A stretch of 64,000 nt of DNA from an uncultured virus (IMG/VR IMGVR_UViG_3300025723_000018) (taxonomy: Duplodnaviria > Heunggongvirae > Uroviricota > Caudoviricetes), in the IMG/VR virus record IMGVR_UViG_3300025723_000018; one strand, given 5' to 3'. How positions within the stretch are numbered: position 1 is the stretch's first letter; each line of letters opens with the position of its first letter. The translations under genes were made by a program, and so were the position numbers. A model generated the notes under the pieces. That model ran no database searches. It was not told the origin of the DNA and saw only the letters and a list, made by a program, of their open reading frames with translations. This document shows, one piece after another, positions 5,088-57,334 of the stretch.

Positions 5088-5693
5088 ATGGCCGAAATTA
5101 AACACGTCGGCCGTGTTAAAGCTACTAACAAAAAATGTTTAGTAGCTTATCGCACATTGCCCGGCGATGCATACCATTGCCTAATTGTTCCAACAGAGAA
5201 CATGCCCGATATCTATCATGATGCAATTATTAACTTGGTAGAAAGTTCAGCTGGACAGGAATCCTACGAACTTGCTCAAGCAATGGATCGTACACAATTC
5301 CCGGACGGTTCACGTATGTTGCCATGGTTACATGCAAATAATCGATTGATTAAAGCACCAACAGGCGCTATTGAAATGACACCTACTCTACAGACTAGTA
5401 TTTTGTTGAGTGAGTTGAATCAAATTATTGCCGAACAACGCGGTGTGCCAATCGACGAACTTGCTCTTACAGAAAGTACGAATGATAAACCAGTTGAAAA
5501 GAAACCAGAGCTGGCAATTGAACAAGCTCCTGAAAAAGTTTCAGCAACTGTCAAAACCGCACTCGTACCAGATGAACCAGAAGCCAAAGCAAAATACTAT
5601 CGTAGTCAAGCAGATAAGTTAGCAAAAGAAGCTGCTAATTTTAGACGCCTAGCAGAGGAATTGGTTCCTACCAAGAAAAAAGCCACTAAATGA
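5088..5693 (+). CDS. Hypothetical protein (201 aa)
   Basis: AGGAG SD; contiguous with neighbours. Confidence 0.8.
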   Translation: MAEIKHVGRVKATNKKCLVAYRTLPGDAYHCLIVPTENMPDIYHDAIINLVESSAGQESYELAQAMDRTQFPDGSRMLPWLHANNRLIKAPTGAIEMTPTLQTSILLSELNQIIAEQRGVPIDELALTESTNDKPVEKKPELAIEQAPEKVSATVKTALVPDEPEAKAKYYRSQADKLAKEAANFRRLAEELVPTKKKATK

Positions 5694-6010
5694 CACCAAC
5701 GGGAAGAGTTCTTCCCAAGGATGTCATAGAGCATTGGCCAGAAGTATTCGGTGAAGTACAACTGAATGTGATACCTCTCAGGTATTTGCATACGGTATTG
5801 GTCAATTTTAAAAATGGCAAAATTTGGGAAATAAAAATAACAGCACAAACTAAACGTGATGGTTGGAGTGCCTTTGAAAAGAATCTCTCAGATATTTGTA
5901 AAAATTATGAAGATTCTATTGATAATGTAGACTTTAAATTAGATACAAAATTAGTTAAAAAAGACATCGAACGTAGTACGCAAAAGTTTTTAAAGAAAAA
6001 AAAGCTATAA
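5690..6010 (+). CDS. Hypothetical protein (106 aa)
   Basis: ATGA overlap with the previous gene. Confidence 0.75.
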   Translation: MTPTGRVLPKDVIEHWPEVFGEVQLNVIPLRYLHTVLVNFKNGKIWEIKITAQTKRDGWSAFEKNLSDICKNYEDSIDNVDFKLDTKLVKKDIERSTQKFLKKKKL

Positions 6011-43174: not shown

Positions 43175-44187
43175 TATACATATCCAAATGAATTATTAAG
43201 GTACCCGCCGCCAACAAACCTATCAAGGCTAAAATTACGAGCACTATTTCTGCTGTAAATTGGTTGTAAAGTTATACTAAATGAGCTCTTAGTTGGCACA
43301 TGAGCTACTCCGCCGCTAGTAGTTCCGCCAAGGCCAAGACTTCCGGCTAGCGCAGCAACTTGTCCTACACCACCAGCTATGCTACTTATACCGCCTGCAA
43401 TGTCGCCAAGTCCAGGAATGGCTCCGCCTAATGATCCTCCAATGCTACTAGCTAGTCCGCCAACAGCATCGCTAACACCCTGTATGTCACCTGCCATACT
43501 ACCGACAACATTACATCCAATATAGTCACAGTTAGCATCTAAACTTGTACTAAAACTTTGTACTACAACAGGTACATTTTTAAAAATATAATTTCCGTAA
43601 CCATTTAACATAACAATTGGAGGAGGATTGCCGGCCTTTGGATCAGATCCAGCGAACATTTTGGTAAGGCTACGTAAATAATGAACCGCCGCAATCCAAT
43701 ATAAAGCCTGAGTTGAATCTTCAACATTCATAGGCGCTGTAATTGATATCTGTCCTGGATCACTATTTTTAAAAGTTCTAAAAGAATAGTTGGTATGTGT
43801 CGTATCAATACTATTATATGATGCTGTGCTGGCAATATTAATTGTTGGAGTGTATGGAAATATGAGACCACCTGCATCTTTTAACGGTTTAAGTACAGGA
43901 CTTCCTTTGAAGCTAGTCCAATTGACTAAACTTAAACGTACACGCCAATCTGCGGGATCAGCATCCCCGCCAAAACTAGCTACCGCACTTACTAAATCCC
44001 CTACAGCTTCCCCTGCTTCTGGCAAGTTAATGGATCTCAATGCGCTACCAAAGCCACCTGGGTCACCATTATATGCTGTAGATACAGCACTGGCTAATCT
44101 ACTGGCTGTGTTTACGCCAGACGACACTGCACCTATTAGGTTCTGTGAACTGGTAGCTGTTTGTATGAAACTATCGCCGAATGACAT
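43174..44187 (-). CDS. Tail tube initiator/baseplate protein (gp48/gp54-like)
   Basis: FPYTPTI, GNPPPI..LNGYG...F..VPVVV.SF motifs; first gene of the baseplate block; Gly-rich insert. Confidence 0.65.
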   Translation of the reverse strand: MSFGDSFIQTATSSQNLIGAVSSGVNTASRLASAVSTAYNGDPGGFGSALRSINLPEAGEAVGDLVSAVASFGGDADPADWRVRLSLVNWTSFKGSPVLKPLKDAGGLIFPYTPTINIASTASYNSIDTTHTNYSFRTFKNSDPGQISITAPMNVEDSTQALYWIAAVHYLRSLTKMFAGSDPKAGNPPPIVMLNGYGNYIFKNVPVVVQSFSTSLDANCDYIGCNVVGSMAGDIQGVSDAVGGLASSIGGSLGGAIPGLGDIAGGISSIAGGVGQVAALAGSLGLGGTTSGGVAHVPTKSSFSITLQPIYSRNSARNFSLDRFVGGGYLNNSFGYV

Positions 44188-44210
44188 AATAAAATCCTCT
44201 TTTGGTATAT

Positions 44211-44246
44211 TATTTATTTGACTTTATTAAGTGCGTAGTTTATAAT
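44211..44246. promoter_or_regulatory. Back-to-back promoters: sigma70 (+) for the late sigma gene and TAAATA late-type (-) for the baseplate operon
   Basis: TTGACT (44218-44223), 17 bp, TATAAT (44241-44246) on +; TAAATA on - at 44211-44216. Confidence 0.65.
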
Positions 44247-44271
44247 GTTACTATTATAGGACTGAGAACGG

Positions 44272-45111
44272 ATGACTTTACCAACACAAACTAAAGTAAA
44301 TTACCTAAACAACAAGGATATGTTGTTAGAAATACATAGAAGTAAAAGCTCGTATTGCAGTTTTACACAACCAGAATATCATCAATATGACATGATTGTT
44401 GCTAGTTTGGATAAGATCAATATAAGAAGCATAGCAGAAGCCAAACGTAATCGAGCTAAGAGAATTGGAGATGCAGAATACCAACGGCGCAAAGCTGCTG
44501 GTGAAAAAGTCAAACAAGCAGATTGTGAAGTTGACTATAAAAAGATTCAAAAAACAGATGTAGTATTCAGGGTCATGACATTCGATCATATTCCATTGAA
44601 CAATACTCGTAAAAAGAATCCTAAGAGTCTAGCAGACCATAGGGACAAGGTCAATTTCCCGCCATTCCAACATTGGAAATTTGATGAAAACGATGAGCTT
44701 GTTTGTGTTGGAAAAAGTCATTGGAAAGGTGATTTGGTTAAGGGCAAGTTCGACAAAGATGCTGGTCAAATTACTAACACTTTAGCTAGGATGATGTTAA
44801 AATTGTGCGAACGTTATGCAACCCGTGGCAATGTTCGCGGTTACACATACAATGACGAAATGAAAGGACAGGCCATTTTGCAGTTAACACAGATTGGATT
44901 ACAATTTGACGAAAGCAAATCCGACAATCCGTTTGCTTATTTTACTGCGGCTGTTACTAACAGTTTTGTTCGTGTTATCAATATTGAAAAACGCAATCAA
45001 AATATTCGTGATGATATTTTAGAAATCAACGGCATGAATCCTAGCTACAGTCGTACTGGTGCTGGAGAACATGCGGCCGCTGTTAAACGATTTGATGAGA
45101 ATCAAGAATGA
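44272..45111 (+). CDS. Late-transcription sigma factor, T4 gp55-like
   Basis: YLNNKD N-terminus; GYTYNDEM...A......QFDESKSDNPFAYFT; upstream of gp47/gp46 as in T4-like phages. Confidence 0.85.
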   Translation: MTLPTQTKVNYLNNKDMLLEIHRSKSSYCSFTQPEYHQYDMIVASLDKINIRSIAEAKRNRAKRIGDAEYQRRKAAGEKVKQADCEVDYKKIQKTDVVFRVMTFDHIPLNNTRKKNPKSLADHRDKVNFPPFQHWKFDENDELVCVGKSHWKGDLVKGKFDKDAGQITNTLARMMLKLCERYATRGNVRGYTYNDEMKGQAILQLTQIGLQFDESKSDNPFAYFTAAVTNSFVRVINIEKRNQNIRDDILEINGMNPSYSRTGAGEHAAAVKRFDENQE

Positions 45112-45120
45112 TTTAACCCT

Positions 45121-45148
45121 AAAGTGTATAAATAAAACTATACACTTT
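45121..45148 (+). promoter_or_regulatory. T4-type late promoter TATAAATA within a 10-bp inverted repeat
   Basis: AAAGTGTATA-aataaaac-TATACACTTT; TATAAATA at 45127-45134; ATG at 45159. Confidence 0.7.
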
Positions 45149-45158
45149 GGATTAAAAT

Positions 45159-45920
45159 ATGTTTATCTATAAAATTATCGTTAATAATAATGTTTATATA
45201 GGACTTGATACTAAACCGTCCTATAAGTTATCACGATGGAAAAAGCATTGCGATGAGGCAACTACAAGATGTAAAACAAAATTACATAAGGCTATGAATA
45301 TGTATGGCATAAAGAATTGTGTAGTTGAAATATTAAAAGATAACTTTAAGTCTATTGGAGAACTTGCGTTATCGGAAATTGATTACATTAAGCAATACGA
45401 TTCTTATAAAAACGGACTTAACTCTACTCCAGGTGGAGACGGTTTAGGAAAATACGATTTAACTTTATTATCGCTTGCAGATATAAACAAAATCAAATCT
45501 GCATTAGGTGAGCATTTTAGTAATTATAATAAAAATATCAAATGGGCAGGAACTACTGAAGTTGATAGAAAATTATTAACTAAACATTTACATACTGACG
45601 AAATTTATCAAAAGAAATCGGATACCCTTAAGAAATTTTACAAAGCAAATCCAGATATTGCCAAAACAAAAGCAGTAGGGATTAGAAAATGGCAGTTGGA
45701 AAATCCAGAAGAAATGAAGAAACGCAATCAGATTAATTCGATTAAAGGTGCCGCGGCTGTTTCGAAGAAACTAAAGGTTGAACTGGAAGACGGTAATGTG
45801 TTATACTATTCAAGTAAAAGTGAATTCCATAGATTAACAAATCAATGGGCAAACACCATTATTAAAAAAACACAAGAAGGTGTTTTCTACAATGGTTATA
45901 AAATATGGGAAGAAAAATGA
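45159..45920 (+). CDS. Free-standing GIY-YIG homing endonuclease (Seg-like)
   Basis: FIYKI...VYIG, RWKKH, E..YIKQYDSYKNGLNSTPGG; basic C-terminal region; more AT-rich than its flanks. Confidence 0.8.
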   Translation: MFIYKIIVNNNVYIGLDTKPSYKLSRWKKHCDEATTRCKTKLHKAMNMYGIKNCVVEILKDNFKSIGELALSEIDYIKQYDSYKNGLNSTPGGDGLGKYDLTLLSLADINKIKSALGEHFSNYNKNIKWAGTTEVDRKLLTKHLHTDEIYQKKSDTLKKFYKANPDIAKTKAVGIRKWQLENPEEMKKRNQINSIKGAAAVSKKLKVELEDGNVLYYSSKSEFHRLTNQWANTIIKKTQEGVFYNGYKIWEEK

Positions 45921-46159
45921 ACAACTACGATATGTCTATTCACACAAACCCTGATGCAAGAGCCTGGGCTAAATTCTTTGCTGAAAAGTATACAGTATGG
46001 TCGGAAGATGGTGTAGAGTCTGATAGTGAGGCTTTAATGACTGCGTGGTTTGCCAATGCTATGATGGCGATGCACGATCATTTAGTGTTGAAAGGTAATC
46101 CAATCAATGGAGATCATGCCCAATATCTTATAGATACCGAAAACGGAGTTAAAGAATAA
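45917..46159 (+). CDS. Hypothetical protein (80 aa)
   Basis: ATGA overlap with the endonuclease stop; TAATG overlap with gp47. Confidence 0.7.
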   Translation: MNNYDMSIHTNPDARAWAKFFAEKYTVWSEDGVESDSEALMTAWFANAMMAMHDHLVLKGNPINGDHAQYLIDTENGVKE

Positions 46160-47172
46160 TGGCAAACTTATTTAAAAAAGTTGCGTGTATGACCGATATT
46201 CATTTCGGTCTCAAGAGCAATTCATCAGTACACAATCAGGACTGTGAAGACTTTGTAGATTGGTATATTGCCAAAGCAAAGGAGGAAGGTTGTGATACAG
46301 GTATCTTTATGGGCGATTGGCATCATAATCGCAATAGCCTTAATATTACTACAATGGATTATAGCCTTAGGGCCTTGGAGAAGTTGGGACAAGCGTTTGA
46401 TCAGTTCTACTTCTTTCCTGGTAATCATGATCTGTACTATAAAGACAAACGAGACATACACTCTGTGGAGTTTGGAAAGTATATACCTGGTATCACTGTG
46501 GTACATGAGCCTACTACTATTGGAGATGTCACGCTGTGTCCATGGTTGGTGGGCGAAGAATGGAAGTCGGTAGGTAAGAAAGGCGGGAAATATATATTTG
46601 GACATTTTGAATTACCTAACTTTTTCATGAACGCTATGATACAAATGCCAGATCATGGAGAGATTCAACTAGATAGTTTCAAACAATATGAACTAGGTTT
46701 TAGTGGACACTTTCATAAGCGTCAGCAACAAAAGAACATGATTTACATCGGCAATGCTTTCCCACACAATTATGCAGATACATGGGACGATGATCGCGGC
46801 ATGATGGTTATGGAATGGGGAGGGCAACCTGAATATTTTAGTTGGCCAGATCAGCCTACTTTTAGAACAGTAACACTAAGCCGTCTAATCGACGAAGCAG
46901 ACACTATTATCAAATCTAAGCAACATTTACGTGTTACGCTAGACATTGATATTACATACGAAGAAGCAAGTTTTATTAAAGAAAAGTTCATGGCAGATTA
47001 TGACATCCGCGAACTTACTCTTATTGCAGAAAAGAAAGATGTTGAAATTAATACCAATATCGATGTACAAGCATTTGAATCAGTAGATCAAATCGTTAGC
47101 AATCAAATTGTTAGTATTGATAGCGATACCTACGACAAAAATATTCTACTGAGCATTTATAACAGCCTATGA
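46159..47172 (+). CDS. Recombination endonuclease subunit, gp47/Mre11/SbcD-like
   Basis: Metallophosphoesterase motifs DIHFG, GDWHH, GNHD, GHF, SGHFH. Confidence 0.92.
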   Translation: MANLFKKVACMTDIHFGLKSNSSVHNQDCEDFVDWYIAKAKEEGCDTGIFMGDWHHNRNSLNITTMDYSLRALEKLGQAFDQFYFFPGNHDLYYKDKRDIHSVEFGKYIPGITVVHEPTTIGDVTLCPWLVGEEWKSVGKKGGKYIFGHFELPNFFMNAMIQMPDHGEIQLDSFKQYELGFSGHFHKRQQQKNMIYIGNAFPHNYADTWDDDRGMMVMEWGGQPEYFSWPDQPTFRTVTLSRLIDEADTIIKSKQHLRVTLDIDITYEEASFIKEKFMADYDIRELTLIAEKKDVEINTNIDVQAFESVDQIVSNQIVSIDSDTYDKNILLSIYNSL

Positions 47173-48944
47173 AAATAAAAGAATTAACCGTTAAAAACTT
47201 TATGAGCGTGGGTAATCAAACCCAAGCTGTAAACTTCGGAAAGGAAAACTTAACACTTGTGCTAGGTGAAAACTTAGACCAAGGCGGTGATGATAACGGC
47301 AGTCGTAATGGTACAGGTAAAACTACCATTGTAAACGCTCTTAGTTTTGCTTTATTTGGTAACGCACTTACTAACATTAAAAAAGACAATCTTATTAACA
47401 AAATTAACAACAAAAATATGTTAGTGACTTTGACGTTTGAAAAAGACGGAACAGATTATCGAATTGAACGTGGACGTAAACCCAGTGTTATGAAGTTCTT
47501 TGTTAACGACCAAGAACAAGAAGGCGAAGAATCCGATGATAGCCAAGGCGATCAACGTGAAACACAAAAAGACATCGATGAACTTTTTGGCATGAGCCAC
47601 GACATGTTCAAGCATATTGTTGCGTTAAACACTTATACAGAACCGTTTTTATCAATGCGGGCCAATGACCAACGTGTTATTATTGAACAGTTGTTGGGTA
47701 TTACTATTCTTAGCGAAAAAGCAGAAACGCTTAAAGAGCTAGTTAAGCAAACTAAGGATGCTATTACACAAGAGTCTGCAAATATCGAAGCTGCCAAGAA
47801 ATCTAATGATAAAATACAAATTAGTATTGATAGTTTGTTAACTAGACAAACAGCTTGGAATACGCAACATGCTAACGAACTTGAAAAGATAGGACGTAGC
47901 ATAGTAGAGTTGGAAAGTGTAGATATTGAAGCTGAGCTTGCGAAGCACAGCGAGCTCAAAGAGTTCGATGAAAAAACAGCGAAGCTGCGAAGTTTAAATA
48001 AGGAACGTGCTACGTTAGATAGCGCGATAGCGCAAGCGGAGCGAAGCGTTACGAAGTATGAACGCGAACTCGCCTTATTGGCAAGTAAGACCTGTCACGC
48101 TTGTGAACAACAGCTACATGATCATAAGCATGAAGAAATGACAGCTCTAGCTCAGAAGCATCTGGACGAGGCGGTCATTTACTTTACTAAAGTATCAAAG
48201 GACCTGGAAAAAATTACAGCAGAAATTACTTCTATTGGTGAGGTTCCAGCCAAGCCTATTACCTACTACGACAGTTATGAGCAGGCGCTTAAACATCAGA
48301 ACAACTTGAAGACTCTTGAAAATCAACTGATACAAAAAAGCAATGACACAGATCCTTATCAGGAACAGATTGACGAACTCACTGACACTGCCATGCAGGA
48401 AATCACCTGGGACAATGTTAATACTTTAACCAGCTTAAAGGATCATCAAGAGTTCTTATTAAAATTGTTGACTAGCAAGGATTCCTTTATCCGTAAAAAG
48501 ATTATAGATCAAAACCTAGCATATTTGAACAATCGTCTAACTTATTATCTTGATAAGATGGGATTGCCTCATACTGTGTTATTCCAAAATGACTTAACCG
48601 TTGAGATCACCCAGCTAGGGCAAGATTTAGATTTTGATAATCTAAGTCGAGGTGAGCGGAATAGACTTATCCTTGGTTTGTCATGGTCGTTTAGAGATGT
48701 TTGGGAAAGTTTATATCAACCTATCAACTTGTTGTTTGTTGACGAGCTTATTGACAACGGGCTTGATGCTGCAGGTGTTGAAGGCGCATTGGCTGTACTA
48801 AAGAAAATGGGTCGTGAACGCAAGAAGAATATTTTCTTAATTAGTCACAAGGACGAACTAATCGGCCGTGTTAACAATGTGTTAAAAGTTATCAAAGAAA
48901 ACGGCTATACTAGCTATGCTAACGATTTAGAAATTAATGAGTAA
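47169..48944 (+). CDS. Recombination ATPase subunit, gp46/Rad50/SbcC-like
   Basis: KNFMSVGN, Walker A NGTGKT, coiled coil with CHAC zinc hook, LSRGE signature, LLFVDE Walker B, ISH. Confidence 0.93.
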   Translation: MKIKELTVKNFMSVGNQTQAVNFGKENLTLVLGENLDQGGDDNGSRNGTGKTTIVNALSFALFGNALTNIKKDNLINKINNKNMLVTLTFEKDGTDYRIERGRKPSVMKFFVNDQEQEGEESDDSQGDQRETQKDIDELFGMSHDMFKHIVALNTYTEPFLSMRANDQRVIIEQLLGITILSEKAETLKELVKQTKDAITQESANIEAAKKSNDKIQISIDSLLTRQTAWNTQHANELEKIGRSIVELESVDIEAELAKHSELKEFDEKTAKLRSLNKERATLDSAIAQAERSVTKYERELALLASKTCHACEQQLHDHKHEEMTALAQKHLDEAVIYFTKVSKDLEKITAEITSIGEVPAKPITYYDSYEQALKHQNNLKTLENQLIQKSNDTDPYQEQIDELTDTAMQEITWDNVNTLTSLKDHQEFLLKLLTSKDSFIRKKIIDQNLAYLNNRLTYYLDKMGLPHTVLFQNDLTVEITQLGQDLDFDNLSRGERNRLILGLSWSFRDVWESLYQPINLLFVDELIDNGLDAAGVEGALAVLKKMGRERKKNIFLISHKDELIGRVNNVLKVIKENGYTSYANDLEINE

Positions 48945-49215
48945 GCACGTTGATCCAAGTCCCTATCAAAACGAAGAGTCGCATGAAAAACTCATGGCGG
49001 CTTTTCGCGAGTATTTTAAAGAAAATCAAGAATGGATCAACAAAGGCACACGTAGTTCAGGCGAACGTATGCGCTACTGGCTAGCGCAGATTAGAATTAT
49101 AGCCAAAGAACGCCGTACGCATGTACAACAGTATCGCGTATGGTTAGATAGGGCAAAAGCAGAACGTAAGGCAAATCAAAAGGCACAGGGTACGGAGACA
49201 GATGACACTAATTAG
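48937..49215 (+). CDS. Small basic protein, possibly histone H1-like Hc1 family
   Basis: EN..W..KG.RSSG.R.R..L..I...AK.RR resembles the Hc1-type KGNKAAGTRARK motif. Confidence 0.5.
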   Translation: MSKHVDPSPYQNEESHEKLMAAFREYFKENQEWINKGTRSSGERMRYWLAQIRIIAKERRTHVQQYRVWLDRAKAERKANQKAQGTETDDTN

Positions 49216-49218
49216 TGT

Positions 49219-49644
49219 ATGTCTTGGTACTATAACAATGAAATTGTAGAAGAACTTCCCGAAGATTGTGTTGGGTTTGTATATCTTATAACAAACACAA
49301 TTACAGGGCGTATGTACATAGGCAAAAAACTAGCAAAATTTTCTAAAACTACTTATCGAACAGTAAAATTAAAAAACGGCACTAAGAAAAAAAAGAAAAT
49401 CCGCAGTAAAATTAACAGTGATTGGCAGACCTATTATGGGTCGTCGGATGAATTACTCAAGGATATTGCGCAGTTAGGTCAAGAAAACTTTCGCAGGGAA
49501 ATACTGTTTTACTGTAAATCCAAAGCAGAAACGTCATATATAGAGGCTCGTGAACAGTTCAGCCGTCGTGTGCTGGAATCAAAAGACTATTATAATGGTC
49601 AAATTTCCGTGCGTGTACACGGTTCACACATACTCAAATCATAA
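49219..49644 (+). CDS. Short GIY-YIG nuclease-family protein (endonuclease II-like)
   Basis: GFVYLITN..TGRMYIGKK, W..YYGSS, F.REIL, E...Q, YYN; Lys-rich insert. Confidence 0.8.
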   Translation: MSWYYNNEIVEELPEDCVGFVYLITNTITGRMYIGKKLAKFSKTTYRTVKLKNGTKKKKKIRSKINSDWQTYYGSSDELLKDIAQLGQENFRREILFYCKSKAETSYIEAREQFSRRVLESKDYYNGQISVRVHGSHILKS

Positions 49645-49669
49645 TACTTTAGGCTACTAAATCACCAAA

Positions 49670-50045
49670 TAAGCCAGCACAGGCGTTGACATTGTGCCCT
49701 GAATCCGTTCTGTTGTGTGACGGCAAGGTAGTTCTGCTTGGTGACAGAGTTATAAATCACTATCCTTTACAGGACGACGATTGGATATGCCATAACCAGT
49801 TTGATTTATAAGGGGAAGTAACAAGGCTAAAAGAGGGGTAGTAGCCCCACGGTTTAACAAGTGTTAGCGTATTTGTTAAGCCCGCCGTCATATAAAGACT
49901 CTGCTCGTGGTACCGGATGACCGCCACTGTAATGCAGTAACGCTAAGGTGATATTGTGCAACTCGGATAATGTCAAAACAACTTTGCCCGCTAGGGCAAA
50001 GTGTGACTGAACAATCTGGATAATATCTTAACGCTTCGCGTTTAA
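49670..50045 (+). ncRNA. Candidate large structured non-coding RNA of unknown class
   Basis: No long ORF; GC-richer than the genome; nested helices 49686-95/49967-76, 49714-24/49884-94, 49750-59/49802-11, 49851-63/49870-82, 49981-89/49994-50002; G-U pairs favour the + strand. Confidence 0.65.
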
Positions 50046-50101
50046 TAAATCATTAACTACTTCTTGATAGACTAATAAAAGTTCGAGCTGAAGCGAAGAA
50101 C

Positions 50102-50121
50102 AGAAGAACGCTAGTTCTTCT
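50102..50121. terminator. Hairpin at the convergence of the + and - transcription units (possible terminator)
   Basis: AGAAGAAC-gcta-GTTCTTCT abutting the stop of the - strand frame at 50121. Confidence 0.5.
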
Positions 50122-50354
50122 TATAACAATGGCATACGTGTTTCTTTAGTTACTTCGATATTCTCTTTGATAATATTATAGATCAATTCACGATCTGAGA
50201 ATGTGTAGATATGAAGTAGATCTTCTACACTAACACCACCACGCATATACCAGGATATTCTAAAAAGTTCTTCTTTAAAGCCCTGGATCTGATTGTCTAG
50301 CCTAACTAGATGTGCTTGAATTTCGTCTGGTGGAAGACTAATTAGGCTTGTACG
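50121..50354 (-). CDS. -1 frame extension of the tail chaperone (gpGT-like; resembles the small gp51-type ORF)
   Basis: 77 open codons RTSLISLPPDEIQAHL...SWYMRGGVSVEDLLHIYTFSDRELIYNIIKENIEVTKETRMPLL; not in the ORF track; starts at a slippery site. Confidence 0.7.
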   Translation of the reverse strand, partial: RTSLISLPPDEIQAHLVRLDNQIQGFKEELFRISWYMRGGVSVEDLLHIYTFSDRELIYNIIKENIEVTKETRMPLL

Positions 50355-51169
50355 AAAAAATTTGACTGATCAAGGTCTACAGCAAGATTGGCTTCTTGGC
50401 CACAGTTGTCGCATTTAACTGGGAATCGAGGCATGGCCCAAGCATCATTATTTTTTTGATTTCTAGCTTTGATAGCATCAAACACACTCTTGTCGCAGTT
50501 GTCCAACCATTCCATGATAAAGGGAGTTTCGGTAACTACTTGCTGACCAGTATCAACACTTTCAATAGTAGCACGATAAATTTCAGTTTGGATATCGGCT
50601 AATTCTTTGAATAAACTGTTAACTACTTCTTGTCTTTCTGGAGTGTTGTCCATGACTTCTGCTTGAGCAAGACGTTGTTGTAGTCTAAAGTTTTTAAGAT
50701 TAAACTCAGTGCTTTGCTTATATGTTAATGGACGTAGATTAATGGTCAGATCGTCTGTGACAATTTTACCGTCATACTGACAGGCCATGTAAAATTCCAC
50801 AACTTTGTTTAGATCGATGTCATAGTCATTTTCAGATCCGCAATTATTGCACTTGTGTCCCACGGTCATGGAGTTGCCATAGGTAGCAATACGAATAGCT
50901 GCCAATAAAATAACTAGATCCAGTATACACAATTCCCAAGGATCTTTGATAGCCGGGCAACAGCTGGTTAAAACTTGTGCTGTGCTTTCGCCAGACAACA
51001 ATGCATCTGGAGTTTTAACAATGATTTCATCCATGCCCGTCATACCATATACTGGTGTATTGGTAACATCGCCTTGGATAGTACCGGGCTTGTTAAAGAT
51101 ACCTCCGCTGGGGAACTTGATATAGATCTTAGGTTGTCTAAAGTACTTTTGTAACGGATTAACGGCCAT
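50342..51169 (-). CDS. Baseplate hub assembly/tail chaperone, T4 gp26-like
   Basis: NPL..YFRQP.IYI..PS.G, MT..DEI..KTPDAL..G, two CxxC pairs; GGAG SD and TATAAATA upstream. Confidence 0.75.
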   Translation of the reverse strand: MAVNPLQKYFRQPKIYIKFPSGGIFNKPGTIQGDVTNTPVYGMTGMDEIIVKTPDALLSGESTAQVLTSCCPAIKDPWELCILDLVILLAAIRIATYGNSMTVGHKCNNCGSENDYDIDLNKVVEFYMACQYDGKIVTDDLTINLRPLTYKQSTEFNLKNFRLQQRLAQAEVMDNTPERQEVVNSLFKELADIQTEIYRATIESVDTGQQVVTETPFIMEWLDNCDKSVFDAIKARNQKNNDAWAMPRFPVKCDNCGQEANLAVDLDQSNFFVQA

Positions 51170-51195
51170 TGTAATAACTCCAAAATATTGTCATG

Positions 51196-51253
51196 TATTT
51201 ATATACGCACTTTTTGGGTTATTTTCGTATTGGCTAGGTTTATTTGGTAAATA
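51196..51253. promoter_or_regulatory. Divergent late promoters
   Basis: TATAAATA on - (51196-51203) and TAAATA on + (51248-51253). Confidence 0.6.
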
Positions 51254-51259
51254 CAAATT

Positions 51260-52285
51260 ATGAAAGTTTATGAAGTAATTTCAAAAGATCCTCAACTAGA
51301 CGAATTCAGTTTGAATCCAATGAACTGGTTCGGTGCCGGTAATGCAGGAGCCGCAGCTAAACAAGCCAGTTATGATGCTGGGGCTGTTAAAAATCTAGCG
51401 GCAATTGCTAAAAAGCAATTTCCAAATCTAAGTCCAGCTGCTGGTAAAGCACTGGCTGACATTACATCTGGTACAGCTAAAGCTAGCAAGGCCGCATCGC
51501 AAGAAGCATTTGCTATGAAAGTAGGTAATATTAGCTATGTGTTGCGTGTACTAGGTGCGTTTGCTATCAGTTACAAGTTGTACAGCAATTTTTCTATACT
51601 TGAAGATAAGTATAATGCAGGTGAATTAAACGCTGAACAGTATAAAGAAGCACACGAAGCCTACTGGGGACTGTGGGTTATTCAATTCATGGGTCCATGG
51701 TTAGCAACAACTTTAGGTACAGCTAAACTAGTAGCATTTTTAATTCGTTTAATACTGGCGGTATTAACATTAGGTGTAACTGTGTTTACTGGCGGAGGTG
51801 CAGCCGCTGCAACAATTACAGGTCTAGTAGTTGAACAAGCTGTGTTTACGGCTTTACAAGCGTTCTTAATGTCTAAAACATTTGAACAATGGATGTCGGA
51901 TCACTTTTTCAAAACACTAGTAACTATTGGTTCAGTACCAGATGCTAGTTGGAATATACTACGTCAGTATTTGAGTGAAATTCCAGTAATAAATGCGTTC
52001 TTCAAAGATAAAGGTGTTGATTTTTACACAGCTGCCAAGAAAGAAAAACAAAGAATCAATCCTGCGGCAGCTGCTGACGATGAAAAAGCAACACAAGCAA
52101 GAAACCTAGCACCTTTAGATTCTGATAAAAATGCTATTATGATTAACGGAATTCGTGTTACTGATAAAGACGGCAACTTAGACGATTATGCCATGATGCG
52201 TCCTTTTGTTAAGAACTATTTAGAACTGCATCCTGAAGATCCTAATGTACAAAAAGTACTAGCACTACAATCCAAATCTAAATAA
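51260..52285 (+). CDS. Membrane-spanning virion-associated protein (341 aa)
   Basis: Long hydrophobic segments (e.g. LVAFLIRLILAVLTLGVTVFTGGGAAAATITGLVV); late-promoter motif; upstream of the tape measure gene. Confidence 0.6.
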   Translation: MKVYEVISKDPQLDEFSLNPMNWFGAGNAGAAAKQASYDAGAVKNLAAIAKKQFPNLSPAAGKALADITSGTAKASKAASQEAFAMKVGNISYVLRVLGAFAISYKLYSNFSILEDKYNAGELNAEQYKEAHEAYWGLWVIQFMGPWLATTLGTAKLVAFLIRLILAVLTLGVTVFTGGGAAAATITGLVVEQAVFTALQAFLMSKTFEQWMSDHFFKTLVTIGSVPDASWNILRQYLSEIPVINAFFKDKGVDFYTAAKKEKQRINPAAAADDEKATQARNLAPLDSDKNAIMINGIRVTDKDGNLDDYAMMRPFVKNYLELHPEDPNVQKVLALQSKSK

Positions 52286-52311
52286 CAGTTATATACGCTG
52301 TTATTCAATCC

Positions 52312-52319
52312 TATAAATA
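52312..52319 (+). promoter_or_regulatory. T4-type late promoter
   Basis: Exact TATAAATA 23 bp before the tape measure ATG. Confidence 0.65.
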
Positions 52320-52342
52320 CACTATATTTCTAGGATTTTTTT

Positions 52343-55300
52343 ATGGCCGCAGATAAAGACACCGTCGAAGCGTTTAAGCAAGCTCTTAAAGAATCTGGCA
52401 TCGGTAAAGGCAACAGCGCACCAAGTAGTACGGCTGGTAATGCAGCCGGAGCAGGATTCGGCGCGGCTACAAAAGATGTTATTGACAGTTTTAATCCTCT
52501 AAGTGCCGCAAGTAAAGCTGTTGGTGCAGGCATGGATGCAGCCGGCAAAGCATACAATAATTTAAAAGGTGTAATTGAACCTAGTCTAGGCACATGGCGA
52601 GAACTTAGTGCTAGTGGTGCAAACTTTAATAACGATATAGTTGGCATGACAGCTGCAGCTGCAGGCGCACGATTAGATATAGCAGAGTTTGGCCAAGTCA
52701 TTAAAAACAACTCAGGCAACTTTAACGGTTTAGGCGGAAGTGCTGCTAAAGGCGCAGAAAATTTTGCTAAGTTAAGTAAAGAAATGGCTGACAGCGGAGT
52801 CACAGATGACTTGCGCATGATGGGTATGACCAGTCGAGATATTAATGATGTCTTGGCAATCACGTTAACACAGCAACAGACTGTGAACATGAATGACGAA
52901 GCTAGTAAGAAACGTGCTATCAAAGCAGCCACAGAACTAGCTACTGAAATGGATTTGATGAGCAAGTTGACTGGTAAGTCACGTGCTGAACAAGAAGAAA
53001 GTTTAAAGAAAGCACAAGCTGACATGCAAGTGGAAGCTAAGTTGCGTATTCTTACAATGGGTAAAAGCGAAGAAGAAGCAGCTGCAATTCGTAATAATTA
53101 CCTAACACAATATAACGAAGCTAATCTCCGTGGACAAGGACAAATGTTTAAAGAAGTCTTTGCCACAGGTACTGTGCAAAGTGAAGAAGCTGCTAACCAA
53201 GTAGCTATCAGTGGCAGAGAAGCACAAGCTACAATGGCACAAGCTCGTGCTACCGCAGAAGGCAATGCCAAAGCTGCTACTGAATACAGTAAGCAAGCAT
53301 CTGCGGAGATGATGAAAAATCAAAATGATGTTAATAAATTAAGTCTTGCTGTTTATTCTAGTAATACCGCCGCTGGCGAAACAATGAAAGCCAGTATGAC
53401 AGCTAATGCTGGCATTTATAAGAGTGAAACAGCTCTTATGAAGCAAATGGAGAAAGAAGGCAAACTAGATGGCATTAAAGACGAAGCTGAAAAACGTCGT
53501 ATAGTACACGAAGAAGCATTAAAACAAGCCAAAGCAGAACAAACAGATAAAAAGCCAGGAAGTGAAAGCACCGAAGCACTTGTTAAATTAGGCGCACGAG
53601 CTGATGATGTTAATAGTGCGTTTATGAATAAGGTTGTTGTTCCTATTAATAAAGATGTAGGTCCAGCATTACAGAAATTTAATGATGGATTATTAAACTC
53701 TCAAGTTAAAGATAAATCAGGTAATGTAACTACTGTTAGTAAAACTTTAGAAAAAGAAGTAGGAGAAGGTTACCAAAGAGGTAAAGAGGGATTTTCTGGA
53801 CCTAATGCCGGCAAAGATGGAGTTATTGGTGCCGCAAAAGATTCAAAATCAGGTAGCCCATTAGAAAATGCTGCGGCTACTGTTGGTGAAAGTGCAGGGT
53901 TTGCAACAGGTAAAATATTACTACCTGCATTAGACAAGACAGCAGACGTTATGAACAACGTCAAAAAAATGGCTGAAGGTGGAACTGTAAATAAACCCGA
54001 ACTAGCTATTATTGGCGAGGCTGGAAAAGAGCATATAGTACCAGATGAAAAGATGCAGACCTTGATGCAAAACATGAAGGTTGATGGTTTAACAGCTGCC
54101 GCAACAGCTATGGCTGATTCACAAAAAGGCGGTGGCGTTAATGTATCTGAAATTTCTAATCTAGTTAAAACTACTATCAGTAGTGCAAGTGGTCCAACAA
54201 CTGGCGCAGCCGCGGCTGCACCTATGACAAAGAGTGAAAAGTTTCAAACAGCAGACTGGGCAGATGCAACTCAAGAAGAAATTGCTAAAGGACTTGAAGG
54301 ATCAAAAAAACAACTAGCTCGTTGGACAACAGATGCGCAGGAAACTGAACAAAAAATTGCAGATATAAAATCTCTAGGATCTAAAAGACAACTTACTGAA
54401 AGTGAACAATATGATCTAGACGAACTTGAAAAAGAAAAAGCAAAAAATCAACGAGCAATTGATTATCATCAAACTACAATTAACGTATTAAACAATCTAG
54501 ACGAATATAAGGCTAGATTAGAAACAGAAAGTAAACAAAAAGTTGTTTCAGCCTCGGAAGAAGCTGCTAAAATTGCAGAATCTCTTGGGTTAACACAAAT
54601 TGATACGGTTAAACAATCAGCCGAAGAACAGAAAACAATCTTAAGTGAACATCAACAAACTACATTGAAATATGCCTACACTGATGCAGAAGGCAAAAAA
54701 ATGCAGTTGGAAAATGCTAAAAATCTTGTTGATGCTGAAAAGAATGCCATTGCTGAAAAGAATAAACAAATTGAAGAAATTCAAGTTGCTGCTGATGGTC
54801 GTGAACTGACAAATAGAGAAAAGAGTCGCATTGAAAAACTGCAAAAAGAAATTGAAGGCAGTAAAGAAACTTTAAGTTACCGTGAACAAGATTTAGCAGT
54901 TTACGCTAATCTTGATAAGTTAAAAACAGAACAAATTACCAAACAAGCCGAAGCACAAAAACGTTTAGAAGAACTCGGCCTCACCGGCACAACAAAACAA
55001 ATTGCCACACAAGCCGAAGCACAAAAACGTTATGAAGAAATATCTAAAGGCGGTATAAAGACAGAAGAAGAACAGCGAGCTGAAGCAACTAAAATGGTAG
55101 AAGCTTCAAATGCTAAAATTGAAAAACTTAAAGCAGATGCCACTGGAAAAACAGAAGCAGCTGCTGGAAAAACAGAAGAACCTTCTAAATCTGTAATACC
55201 CGACTTTAGTTCTTTTGGAGAAGGAGTAAAAGGCTCGGGACTTCCTCCGTTCTTGCAAAAATTAAATGCTCAAATTAAAGATTCTAAACCTGCTCCAATC

Positions 55301-55576
55301 AAATCACCAACTGAAGCAAATAAAGATGCATCTAAAACTACAGCACAAGCTGTTAAAGAAGAAAAGAAAGAAGAACCAAAAAAACAAGAAGCAAAAAAAG
55401 AAGAAAAACCAGCTACAGGAACAGTTGCAGAAGTTACCATGAAAGATCTACATGCCAGTCTAGAACACTTAAATAAGAGTATGACAAGCCTTCTTAGTTA
55501 TAGTCAACAAACAGCCACAGCAGCACAACAACAAGTTAAGGCAACTAAAAGTTTAAGTGGCAATAAGTTTGCTTAA
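52343..55576 (+). CDS. Tail tape measure protein (1077 aa)
   Basis: Ala/Glu/Lys-rich helical protein; AEGG.V..P..AIIGEAGKE.IVP motif common in tape measures; 22-aa duplication QIxxQAEAQKR. Confidence 0.7.
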   Translation: MAADKDTVEAFKQALKESGIGKGNSAPSSTAGNAAGAGFGAATKDVIDSFNPLSAASKAVGAGMDAAGKAYNNLKGVIEPSLGTWRELSASGANFNNDIVGMTAAAAGARLDIAEFGQVIKNNSGNFNGLGGSAAKGAENFAKLSKEMADSGVTDDLRMMGMTSRDINDVLAITLTQQQTVNMNDEASKKRAIKAATELATEMDLMSKLTGKSRAEQEESLKKAQADMQVEAKLRILTMGKSEEEAAAIRNNYLTQYNEANLRGQGQMFKEVFATGTVQSEEAANQVAISGREAQATMAQARATAEGNAKAATEYSKQASAEMMKNQNDVNKLSLAVYSSNTAAGETMKASMTANAGIYKSETALMKQMEKEGKLDGIKDEAEKRRIVHEEALKQAKAEQTDKKPGSESTEALVKLGARADDVNSAFMNKVVVPINKDVGPALQKFNDGLLNSQVKDKSGNVTTVSKTLEKEVGEGYQRGKEGFSGPNAGKDGVIGAAKDSKSGSPLENAAATVGESAGFATGKILLPALDKTADVMNNVKKMAEGGTVNKPELAIIGEAGKEHIVPDEKMQTLMQNMKVDGLTAAATAMADSQKGGGVNVSEISNLVKTTISSASGPTTGAAAAAPMTKSEKFQTADWADATQEEIAKGLEGSKKQLARWTTDAQETEQKIADIKSLGSKRQLTESEQYDLDELEKEKAKNQRAIDYHQTTINVLNNLDEYKARLETESKQKVVSASEEAAKIAESLGLTQIDTVKQSAEEQKTILSEHQQTTLKYAYTDAEGKKMQLENAKNLVDAEKNAIAEKNKQIEEIQVAADGRELTNREKSRIEKLQKEIEGSKETLSYREQDLAVYANLDKLKTEQITKQAEAQKRLEELGLTGTTKQIATQAEAQKRYEEISKGGIKTEEEQRAEATKMVEASNAKIEKLKADATGKTEAAAGKTEEPSKSVIPDFSSFGEGVKGSGLPPFLQKLNAQIKDSKPAPIKSPTEANKDASKTTAQAVKEEKKEEPKKQEAKKEEKPATGTVAEVTMKDLHASLEHLNKSMTSLLSYSQQTATAAQQQVKATKSLSGNKFA

Positions 55577-55591
55577 AAGGATATAAATTAG

Positions 55592-57334
55592 ATGAGTTGG
55601 AAAAAGTATTTTACGCCCGTACCTGTAAATGGTGAATTGTTAGGCCCTATCAGCGGCCAAAACAACGGCAATCGTCCTGGTCCGGCAAGAAGTAACTATT
55701 CTAGCTACTTGCCGGATGTATATTCTGGTAGTCCAAATCGTATTGAGCGTTATCAACAGTACGAAGTTATGGATAGTGATCCAGAAGTTAACGCTGCTCT
55801 AGACATTCTAGCTGAATTCTGCACACAAAAACTAAAAGATTCAAAGAGTCCATTTGCGGTCAAGTGGCGCAATAAAGGAACTAATGTAGAAGTTCGTGTT
55901 TTAAGTGAATATCTACAACAATGGAACAAGTTGCAAAACTTTGATGTACGTATTTTTCGTATTGTTCGCAATACTTTTAAGTATGGAGATAGTTTCTTTA
56001 TTAGAGATCCTGAAAATCAAAAGTGGAGTTACTTAGATCCTAGTCAAATTATCAAAGTTATTGTTAATGAAAGTGAAGGTAAGAAACCTGAACAGTATAT
56101 TGTTAAAGATCTAGCACCTAATTTTGAAAATTTAATTGCTACAATGATTACTCCTACAGTAAATCCACGTCAAACTGGCGGTGGTCCATTGCCTGCAAGC
56201 GGTTATTTAGGGCAATCAGGCGGTGGTAGTAGTAGCGGAACTAGTGGAGGTAACGTAGGCGGACGCTTTGGAATGAATCAAAAGGAAAATGCCATCGATA
56301 ATAAGCATATGGTTCATTTGAGTTTGTCAGAAGGTTTAGATCAAAATTTTCCATTTGGCAATAGTTTATTAGAAAATATCTTTAAAGTTTACAAACAAAA
56401 AGAACTATTAGAAGATGCAATCTTGATTTATCGTATACAACGTGCTCCAGAACGTCGTGTATTCCATATCGACGTGGGTAATATGCCTAGTCACTTAGCC
56501 ATGGCATTCGTAGAACGTGTTAAAAACGAAATACATCAACGCCGTATTCCGTCACAAACAGGAGGCGGACAGAACGTCATAGACTCTGCATACAACCCTC
56601 TGAGCATTAACGAAGATTATTTCTTCCCTAAAACAGCAGACGGCAAAGGATCAGACGTCACAATGCTAGAAGGCGGTAAGAATATTGGCGAAATTGATGA
56701 CTTGAAGTACTTTACTAACAAGTTATTCCGTGGATTACGTATTCCAAGTAGCTATTTGCCTACTGGTGCGGATGATTCACAGAGCAATTTCAATGATGGT
56801 CGTGTAGGAACAGCGTACATTCAAGAGTTACGTTTTAACAAATACTGTGAAAGACTTCAAAGTTTACTAACAGCAGTGTTTGATAGCGAGTTTAAATTGT
56901 TTTTAAATGCTCGTGGATTGAATATTGATCCAGATTTATTTGAACTAAACTTTAATCCTCCTATGAACTTTGCAAGTTCACGTCAAGCAGCTATTGACAC
57001 TGAACGGATTAATACATTTAATACCATTCAAGCCGTTCCATTTATGAGTAAACGCTTTGCTCTTAAACGTTTCCTTGCACTAACAGACGAGGAAGTAGCA
57101 GAAAACGAACGTCTATGGGCAGAAGAAAATGGAAAAGGACAGCCAACTACTACCGATGCCGCTGGAGAATTACGTAGTGCAGGCTTGTCTGCTAGCGGAA
57201 TAGAAGGAGACATGGGTGCTGCTGGTGACATGACAGCTCCAGAAGATATAACAGACACTGGCGAAGAACAAGGAGCTCCTAATCCTGGAGCTGCAACACA
57301 ACCTGGGGCCGCTACTCCACCGCCTGCCGCATAA
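55592..57334 (+). CDS. Portal vertex protein, T4 gp20-like
   Basis: MDSDPEVNAALD, LLEDAILIYRIQRAPERRVFHIDVGNMP, EDYFFP, D..YF..KLFRGLRIP.S. Confidence 0.95.
   Translation: MSWKKYFTPVPVNGELLGPISGQNNGNRPGPARSNYSSYLPDVYSGSPNRIERYQQYEVMDSDPEVNAALDILAEFCTQKLKDSKSPFAVKWRNKGTNVEVRVLSEYLQQWNKLQNFDVRIFRIVRNTFKYGDSFFIRDPENQKWSYLDPSQIIKVIVNESEGKKPEQYIVKDLAPNFENLIATMITPTVNPRQTGGGPLPASGYLGQSGGGSSSGTSGGNVGGRFGMNQKENAIDNKHMVHLSLSEGLDQNFPFGNSLLENIFKVYKQKELLEDAILIYRIQRAPERRVFHIDVGNMPSHLAMAFVERVKNEIHQRRIPSQTGGGQNVIDSAYNPLSINEDYFFPKTADGKGSDVTMLEGGKNIGEIDDLKYFTNKLFRGLRIPSSYLPTGADDSQSNFNDGRVGTAYIQELRFNKYCERLQSLLTAVFDSEFKLFLNARGLNIDPDLFELNFNPPMNFASSRQAAIDTERINTFNTIQAVPFMSKRFALKRFLALTDEEVAENERLWAEENGKGQPTTTDAAGELRSAGLSASGIEGDMGAAGDMTAPEDITDTGEEQGAPNPGAATQPGAATPPPAA

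Follow-up and report, generated by a model that had tools for sequence, protein, structure and literature searches.

Background

RNA elements with competing strands include attenuators and the expression platforms of riboswitches, of which the trp attenuator is an example, and IS110 bridge RNAs and multi-seed small RNAs read nucleic acids through two loops or seeds. The insert of gene 60 in bacteriophage T4 is linked to a homing endonuclease cassette. One article calls this insert a mobile element (bioRxiv 10.1101/2022.08.31.505936), and two others describe, for gene 60, a bypass with a GGA take-off codon and a 50-nt gap (PMC5462505; bioRxiv 10.1101/2024.12.09.627546). A table of Weinberg et al. 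(2010; PMC2864571) classes the motif Polynucleobacter-1 (Rfam RF01718) as likely to be an RNA and likely to be cis-regulatory, with Burkholderiales and fresh water or estuary as its sources, and the row for the motif in the supplementary table gives 16 sequences; the name was absent from the other papers of the literature searched. Here we describe a long form of this orphan motif, a multiply pseudoknotted, non-coding RNA of about 390 nt found in uncultured freshwater T4-like phages, together with two short sequences within it that change in step and stay identical. The reference is IMG/VR virus record IMGVR_UViG_3300025723_000018 (Duplodnaviria; Heunggongvirae; Uroviricota; Caudoviricetes), of which a stretch of 64,000 nucleotides is called the window; coordinates are those of the window unless a homologous locus is named.

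A sequence-only reading of positions 49,686 to 50,027 had taken two near-identical 5' strands and two near-identical 3' strands as a sign of crossing helices or of strand exchange between mutually exclusive folds, with a pair of repeated protein-binding or cleavage sites as the fallback. Across homologues, the two 3' strands proved to be a real feature: they are two copies of one module, in which a constant handle is followed by a freely variable 7-nt 'specifier'.

Two copies of a 7-mer that change together

Homologues were collected by two exact-motif scans of a viral contig collection, one anchored in the Rfam part of the RNA and the other in its downstream part, with at least 119 stretches from each. 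A profile search gave 194 hits among the stretches listed, of which 166 were full length and 137 unique. Counts out of 137 refer to these unique full-length homologues, from uncultured T4-like phage contigs among the matches listed; counts out of 146 refer to the unique sequences among 186 profile hits that span both copies of the 7-mer. The repeats were absent from both search patterns, and the identity described below is therefore not an artefact of how the set was collected. Covariation counts were run on a tool-made alignment of the 137 sequences (A1), and the tree was built with FastTree with the repeat columns left out; recombination may inflate the numbers of changes counted on it.

Each of the two modules begins right after a helix with (U)GUGAC, followed by a variable linker, and the two flank a hairpin, H (49982-89/49994-50001). 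Module 1 (49946-49981, + strand) consists of GUGA(U/C), the linker, the first repeat (R1) and a tail, and the duplex energies of linker and R1 indicate a local hairpin, 49950-55/49969-74 in the window. R1 (49961-49972, + strand) is made up of the constant handle A-CUC (49961-64), the variable 7-mer (49965-71) and a G (49972). Module 2 (50002-50029, + strand) likewise consists of (U)GUGAC, a linker, the second repeat (R2) and a tail, with R2 comprising the handle AUCU (50014-17), the 7-mer (50018-24) and an A (50025), also on the + strand.

The 7-mers at 49965-71 and 50018-24 were identical in all 137 full-length homologues and, in the wider recount, in all 146, with 11 different 7-mers represented. 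Among the 137, both copies have G at position 1 in 71 and A in 66; at position 2 they share G in 122, C in 13 and A in 2, at position 5 they share A in 79 and G in 58, and at position 7 T in 103, A in 25 and G in 9. AGCAGAA occurs twice in L026, which belongs to the counted set, and two divergent relatives outside the full-length set, read by eye, carry GTCGAAA twice (L076) and ACATGAA twice (L379). On the tree, the 7-mer changes at least 46 times. Its first position changes at least 25 times, with R2 following R1 in every one of these 25 cases, or in 13 of 13 when only supported branches are counted (sign test, p = 0.00024). Per position there are 25, 13, 17 and 6 coupled changes, which is as often as the Watson-Crick pairs in this RNA change (16-33).

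In a highly recombinogenic phage, identity without function could result from slippage or repeated gene conversion between the short repeats; T4-type phages recombine intensely, which counts for conversion, as does the nuclease gene adjoining the RNA. Conversion tracts would, however, erase adjacent differences, yet the 5' flanks of the two 7-mers differ and never vary, being CTC in R1 and TCT in R2 in 137 of 137, and the base that follows the 7-mer is G in R1 and A in R2 in 115 of 137. Farther out, identity between the flanks fades (80% and 68% downstream, 75% and 62% upstream). Gradual decay combined with fixed adjacent differences looks like selection and not like copying, and we regard identity without function as highly improbable.

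The spacing between R1 and R2 ranges from 48 to 61 nt and covers all three phases, and in 145 of 146 homologues a sense codon and then UAA or UGA can be read in the 7-mer. The repeats could be matched take-off and landing sites of a templated hop, in which a nascent strand (RNA polymerase, DNA polymerase or recombination) or a peptidyl-tRNA leaves R1 and pairs again at R2, skipping hairpin H, much as ribosomes hop between the two matched GGA codons of T4 gene 60. A universal reader of this sort would explain free variation with perfect identity without a fixed partner, as well as a spacing that varies over all phases and the presence of a hairpin between the sites; a stop codon likewise follows the take-off codon of gene 60, and a homing-type nuclease gene adjoins the element. 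On the other hand, no open reading frame (ORF) enters R1 in a conserved frame, ORFs begun in R1 stop at scattered places, and the sequence upstream of R1 is a covarying RNA structure. The codon after landing would be the same stop codon, and the identity of 7 nt exceeds one codon; in the window the landing codon is followed by UAA, and the frame set by the first codon of the 7-mer has a stop 7 codons upstream. None of the 146 unique homologues is without the 48-61-nt segment, unlike what a skip at the DNA level would leave, and we know of no hopping by a bacterial RNA polymerase. A templated hop is, in sum, unlikely.

The same coupling might arise if R1 and R2 touch directly, in parallel like-with-like pairs or a tertiary zipper (A-A, G-G, U-U) held by H and the linker. 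The coupling keeps strict register and a common 5'-to-3' direction, just two sites need to change, which fits its Watson-Crick-like rate, and no third strand was found in the searches described below. The fixed differences are, moreover, all transitions (CUC versus UCU, and G versus A at +1), so that purines stay opposite purines and pyrimidines opposite pyrimidines at each in-register position, with the same holding at +2 in 122 of 137. Nevertheless, to our knowledge no natural RNA has such a long parallel like-with-like duplex, the widths of the pairs would differ at position 2 (G/G, C/C, A/A) and position 7 (U/U, A/A, G/G), which is unexpected for a rigid duplex, and the spacing between the repeats varies. 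Direct contact thus seems rather unlikely, and the more general notion that the 7-mers recognise each other, whether in a parallel like-with-like duplex or as donor and acceptor of a templated jump over the hairpin segment, is doubtful.

R1 and R2 could instead be two binding sites for one protein, bound as a dimer or in two copies; for comparison, both nut sites in a lambdoid phage agree with one another and with the N protein of that phage. The modules are equivalent, with constant handles, invariant positions (A at 6, purine at 5) and a start after a helix and GUGAC. Yet there are at least 14 different 7-mers, and the base at position 1 has switched no fewer than 25 times, near-identical phages included. 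GGATAAT in the window and AGATAAT in L006 are unlike in their first base, while the neighbouring GIY-YIG proteins (the only proteins compared) are 95% identical, which makes a sequence-blind protein reader unlikely. A protein cannot demand sameness at a position that it does not read, and so frequent a change of specificity is unlikely; the neighbouring nuclease gene can be swapped for one of the PD-(D/E)XK type (L371), so that there is no fixed partner there. We consider two protein sites improbable. A sponge of the CsrA/RsmA type, which is defined by GGA in loops, was rejected, the GGA not being invariant (G at position 1 in 71 of 137, and GCA in 13).

A possible base-read specifier and the search for a partner

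Because parallel-changing direct repeats look like two strands competing for one complement, a partner strand was sought. No alignment column had mutual information above 0.35 to position 1, and within about 500 nt there was neither a recurring exact reverse complement of the 7-mer nor a third copy of it. Duplex-energy scans of either core against the whole RNA were flat (means of -1 to -4 kcal/mol), and no segment of the RNA co-evolves with either core, the largest advantage of the cognate pairing over homologues with other 7-mers being 0.6 kcal/mol. In the flanks, on both strands (600 nt upstream at 39 loci and 400 nt downstream at 90 loci), the cognate-minus-non-cognate difference did not exceed 0.3 kcal/mol. 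No partner in cis was thus found for the specifiers, either in the RNA or in these flanks.

Three candidates were rejected. The conserved junction UCACUAUCC (49757-65) was considered as a partner of GGAUA; its variants are not associated with the 7-mers and its bases are engaged locally. The U-rich strand 49802-11 gives 6-of-7 matches (G-U allowed) that are low in information, and it is already the 3' side of the outer helix. A competing-strand (attenuator) switch for R1 and R2 would need a shared complement covarying with both; none was found, and the linker co-evolves with R1 only. Elsewhere in the window, one-mismatch complements of handle plus 7-mer occur at chance level (35 versus 31.3 expected), and the window contains neither an inverted-repeat DNA target nor further copies of handle plus 7-mer. 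Close 7-mer pairs in another, 262-kb record (G002, which holds L379) were rejected as well, as they lie in coding sequence without handles.

It is possible that R1 and R2 are one base-read specifier shown twice and read by a nucleic acid outside the RNA. A base-pairing reader in trans is suggested because the specifiers must be identical while no complement exists in or near the RNA, and it is preferred to a protein because the sequence is free to vary and sameness at an unread position is beyond what a protein can impose. The RNA would then present the same short address twice, like a bivalent seed, and both specifiers would base-pair with a single trans reader, either an RNA or a DNA strand. 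We put this forward tentatively, both as to the reader being a nucleic acid in trans and as to its identity.

Several observations weigh against such a reader. No trans partner was found in the window, in the 98-kb record G001 or in G002: in the 64-kb window the perfect complements of handle plus 7-mer were the repeats themselves only, and in the two records hits were at chance level and without the handle complement. In phages that recombine heavily, changes at both sites, 46 or more in number, would each have to be matched by the trans partner; this is hard without tight linkage, and nothing turned up within about 0.5 kb. With a reader tolerant of G-U wobble, mixed G/A states would be expected at position 1, and the 146 include none. 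The base at position 6 is invariably A and that at position 5 invariably a purine, which hints at a structural or protein constraint too. Finally, L048, read by eye, has AGCGAAA in one copy and AGCGAAG in the other, the only exception seen.

Proposed crossing helices and the assignment of the four strands

The four strands are present in the window at precisely the coordinates given for them, the 5' strands being TGACATTGTGC (49687-97) and TGATATTGTGC (49949-59) and the 3' strands GGATAATGTC (49965-74) and GGATAATATC (50018-27). The repeats and complementarities quoted for them are also real, namely a direct repeat, 49687-97/49949-59 (11 nt, 91%), and the inverted repeats 49686-93/49969-76 (8 nt, 100%) and 49950-60/50017-27 (11 nt, 82%). 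All three duplexes of the crossing model are stable in the window, with energies of -12.0 kcal/mol for 49682-97 with 49962-81, -10.4 kcal/mol for 49946-60 with 49962-81 and -9.4 kcal/mol for 49946-60 with 50015-34. The region 49686-50027 has 4 direct 10-mer pairs with at most one mismatch, against a mean of 1.6 in mononucleotide shuffles, 21 of 200 of which reach 4. The repeats in the window sequence alone are thus not clearly beyond chance, and the verdict rests on the homologues.

Over the 137 aligned rows, the proposed crossing helices (49688-95 with 49967-74, and 49950-57 with 50020-27) were paired in 62.9% of cells, compared with 62.2% in shuffled alignments, and their covariation score was 0.124 versus 0.122, with 147 of 500 shuffles as high. 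The first of these helices was paired in 53.9% of cells and overlaps the 3' strand of another hairpin, P1 (49677-81/49693-97), which is 98.0% paired with 5 of 5 pairs changed on both sides; it is lost in the 90%-identical homologue L006, where the loop of P1 has already changed. Nor are the near-identical 5' strands a true pair, as they are uncoupled, with in-register identity per position ranging from 10/40 to 101/137. The matching of a C/T difference in the 5' strands by a G/A difference in the 3' strands is present in the window and confined to its clade.

The alternative fold, a local pairing of 49949-57 with 49967-75, corresponds to a real hairpin. Column by column it shows nothing (76.7% paired versus 76.3%, 195 of 500 shuffles as high), because its register shifts between clades; in an alignment-free comparison, by contrast, duplexes of the linker (49946-60) with the R1 and tail of the same sequence have a mean energy of -6.65 kcal/mol versus -4.79 ± 0.15 after permutation (0 of 2000 as low). 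Exchange of this linker to the second 3' strand did not stand up: the mean energy was -3.78 kcal/mol versus -3.57 permuted (112 of 2000 as low), and linker and R2 form the more stable duplex in just 11% of homologues. In the clade of the window the linker retains GAYATT, a match for AATGTC as well as for AATATC; it happens to fit both R1 and R2.

Taken across homologues, crossing helices, or exchange of 49949-57 between the two 3' strands, appear largely refuted from these sequence comparisons, and we give them almost no credence, even with the local hairpin being real and other mutually exclusive pairings having covariation support in the same RNA. The 3' strands are conserved and perfectly coupled, although not as strands of a crossing fold, and the fallback proposal of paired binding or cleavage sites came closest to their appearance. 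Mutually exclusive pairings, unsupported at the strands named, do have covariation support at 49884-97 and hairpin H (see below). As for the 5' strands, the first (49687-97) is the loop end and 3' side of P1 and the second (49949-59) is the 5' side of the local hairpin that displays the first 3' strand; the two are unrelated to each other. We hold this assignment of the strands, and the fold described next, with high confidence.

Fold of the RNA and possible competing pairings

A model built from mutual information comprises 93 pairs in 17 helical elements (21 helices as split by the counting tool), including four pseudoknots. Over the 137 rows, 87.1% of cells are paired, compared with 72.5% ± 0.2 in shuffles (0 of 500 as high), and 77 pairs have changes on both sides. 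The covariation score is 0.399 versus 0.157 shuffled (0 of 500), and controls with the model slid along the alignment gave 0.058-0.084. G-U pairs are frequent and are compatible with the + strand only, on which all of the following elements lie.

Pseudoknot 1 joins 49663-68 to the loop 49738-43, and pseudoknot 2 joins 49673-75 to the P1 loop at 49682-84, within the P1 hairpin (49677-49697). In pseudoknot 3 the loop 49864-70 of the hairpin 49851-62/49871-82 pairs with 49940-46 (95.1% paired, 7 of 7 pairs changed on both sides), and in pseudoknot 4 49887-91 pairs with 49917-21 within the loop of 49907-10/49924-27. The last of these belongs to a compact pseudoknotted core of three helices, 49887-91/49917-21, 49901-04/49934-37 and 49907-10/49924-27, which are 99.7%, 97.4% and 96.5% paired and show compensatory changes. 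Hairpin H is 96.5% paired, with 5 of 8 pairs changed on both sides. At the 3' end, a terminal hairpin with a GCUUCGC core (50030-50042) has covarying flanking pairs, 50032/50040 and 50033/50039; it is only 58% paired in the tool alignment because the region aligns poorly there, and it is probably the 3' end or terminator of the RNA.

In the window, H is one of two 8-bp hairpins with the loop GCTA, CTTTGCCC-GCTA-GGGCAAAG (49982-50001) and AGAAGAAC-GCTA-GTTCTTCT (about 50098-50117). The GCTA loop of the former is not conserved in homologues, and its - strand was flagged as terminator-like in the window only.

A segment at 49884-49897 (+ strand) mimics both strands of H, through the pairings 49884-86 with 49995-97 and 49894-97 with 49982-85. 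These two pairings are found in 95.1% of cells versus 89.3% in shuffles (0 of 500), with 56 double-change cells versus 18.7 and a covariation score of 0.232 versus 0.142 (0 of 500). GCC (or ACC) in this segment tracks the G-C, A-U or U-A pair at the top of the H stem, and its NAAG tracks the NAAG of the 3' strand of H. As the pairings are mutually exclusive with H, they point either to an RNA switch or to base triples, which would give the same counts. In homologues of the L040 type, position 49884 matches the opposite strand of the pair, and this pattern favours base triples. A stem 49999-50004/50023-29, considered as a fourth attenuator strand, was rejected (73.7% of cells pair, with no covariation).

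Extent of the RNA and its Rfam domain

The whole conserved structured RNA runs from 49663 to 50042 on the + strand (ends approximate; about 380-390 nt), as judged from the fold model and from similarity of the homologues to the window, which spans all of 49660-50045 and so extends beyond the Rfam part. Its 5' domain (49672-49811, + strand) is Polynucleobacter-1, matching model positions 1-141 of 141 with 78.9 bits (E = 8.5e-16; the gathering score is 37 bits). RF01718 also matched in all 20 homologous loci tested, with 39.6-121.2 bits. The rest of the RNA has no match to an Rfam family, and a scan of 44000-56000 with E up to 1 returned RF01718 and one chance hit alone.

The helices of the Rfam model are preserved by compensatory change: P1 as given above, P2 at 91.8% and 85.4% paired, the hairpin 49731-36/49745-50 at 84.8% and the hairpin 49779-84/49796-801 at 99.1%. 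The outer helix is 67.1% paired overall, its five inner pairs forming in 132-136 of 137 rows and its three outermost, in this alignment, in about 20 of 137. Positions 49763 and 49775, in the junction that is conserved best within the Rfam domain, swap between U/C and C/U (103 and 34 of 137), a non-Watson-Crick covariation that accompanies a loop change to GAAA.

Two other readings of the locus were rejected. A protein-coding reading is contradicted by the absence of a conserved ORF, the R1-R2 spacing in all three phases and covariation of the RNA type, and a group I intron carrying the GIY-YIG gene by the absence of both an Rfam group I match and a split host gene. None of the flanking genes is interrupted, and past the RNA the next genes run on the opposite strand. 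Folding of the intergenic stretch of the window alone was only slightly better than that of shuffles (z = -1.75).

Genome context and distribution

The window is from a T4-like phage, with SbcD/SbcC-like gp47 and gp46 encoded at 46159-48944, followed by a small ORF (48937-49215) and a GIY-YIG (SegE-like) nuclease gene of 141 aa (49219-49644, + strand; Pfam SegE_GIY-YIG, E = 1.4e-33) directly upstream of the RNA. Beyond the RNA, a gp26-like baseplate hub gene (50342-51169) lies on the opposite strand, convergent with it, and the four strands sit in the gap that separates this gene from the GIY-YIG gene. Near the end of the gp26-like gene (region 50342-50369), the - strand has a TTTTTTC slippery run (50355-61), and a stop-to-stop frame of 82 aa (50121-50369) overlaps the gene end, a layout like that of a -1 frameshift into a longer, gp51-like form. 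ARAGORN found no tRNA or tmRNA gene in the whole window.

The RNA occupies a fixed place in the genome, in the order gp47-gp46, small ORF, free-standing nuclease gene, RNA and convergent gp26/gp51-like baseplate genes. Among 20 loci retrieved through the gp26-like protein, with 50-100% protein identity, 13 keep the order gp46, small ORF, nuclease gene, RNA and convergent gp26; in one of the 13 the available sequence does not reach as far as gp46 and the small ORF. L379 keeps the gene order, with a divergent RNA recognised by eye alone, and 6 of the 20 have no RNA within the available DNA, one of them ending too early to tell. In L048 and L026, about 190 nt of additional conserved sequence lies between the nuclease gene and the RNA.

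The GIY-YIG gene is upstream of the RNA in 40 of 42 homologous loci with at least 480 nt of upstream flank. Of the other two, one has neither nuclease gene and one, L371, carries a PD-(D/E)XK nuclease gene (5484-6010 of that locus, - strand; PF24608, E = 2.4e-29) in the exact place of the GIY-YIG gene. Unrelated nuclease genes appear to use the same landing place beside the RNA. Two unrelated nuclease folds at one spot therefore look like homing-type genes parked beside a conserved RNA gene and not like partners of the RNA, and an RNA-guided GIY-YIG nuclease was rejected as made unlikely by this replacement.

On the 3' side, an ORF of 300-480 aa on the same strand as the RNA is present in 7 of 38 loci with at least 400 nt of downstream sequence, for instance at 4045-4956 of L367, 4046-5056 of L369, 4046-4984 of L371, 4050-5039 of L377 and 4046-5488 of L370 (all on the - strand of the loci), starting 50-100 nt past the RNA. 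These ORFs match no Pfam or PHROG family, the sole match being a sub-threshold HicA_toxin in L370. In such phages the RNA may be a leader of the downstream ORF, in line with the 'cis-regulatory' call in the table of the 2010 paper. The window and its closest relatives lack this ORF, and because the RNA survives without it, the RNA presumably has a function of its own.

A blastn search of 50,697 deposited phage genomes returned nothing similar to the RNA, and a scan of bacterial and archaeal genomes gave 2 true homologues (L355 and L343) among at least 121 stretches listed. Both are on contigs of Bacteroidota metagenome bins, one of an uncultured Bacteroidetes and one of a Flavobacteriales; these may be a hint to the host, or phage contigs binned with bacteria.

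Comparison with known systems

Polynucleobacter-1, an orphan since 2010, is now the front third of a large knotted RNA at a fixed position in phage genomes. RNAs of such size and complexity are often ribozymes or scaffolds of machines. Two sites in its tail evolve as tightly as a base pair and yet stay identical, not complementary, a relation that covariation analysis does not normally reveal. Whether R1 and R2 are read by a nucleic acid in trans, by each other or by a polymerase or ribosome that hops, their reading would represent a new use of short RNA sequences; mutual recognition of the 7-mers, if true, would be a form of sequence coupling so far undescribed in RNAs of bacteria or phages. 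The finding of GIY-YIG and PD-(D/E)XK genes beside the same RNA also informs how homing nucleases choose their sites.

With IS110 bridge RNAs and multi-seed small RNAs, the RNA shares a structured scaffold and short variable sequences on constant handles. Those RNAs, however, carry two different guides, or conserved seeds with known partners, whereas here the pair is identical and neither a partner nor a dedicated protein is known. Attenuators resemble R1 and R2 in having direct repeats that change in parallel, but the shared complement that defines the class is absent for R1 and R2. The possible pairings of 49884-97 with H, which may instead be base triples, show the same pattern as attenuators with competing strands, and there the shared partner is present.

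The likeness to T4 gene 60 lies in matched sites about 50 nt apart around a hairpin, in a T4-type phage and with a mobile nuclease gene nearby; as with the matched take-off and landing codons of gene 60, positions 1-3 of the two 7-mers are identical in 146 of 146. The present element differs in that no conserved frame leads in or out, the RNA has a covarying fold, the identity extends over 7 nt and a stop follows the landing codon. With Polynucleobacter-1 itself, the agreement extends over all 141 positions of RF01718, which match the 5' third of the RNA. In that model, which covers about one third of the element, there is no counterpart of the 5' pseudoknot strand at 49663-68, of the pseudoknotted core in the centre, of the two modules or of the terminal hairpin, and the context differs from that described for the motif, the RNA being found here in T4-like phage DNA beside a nuclease gene.

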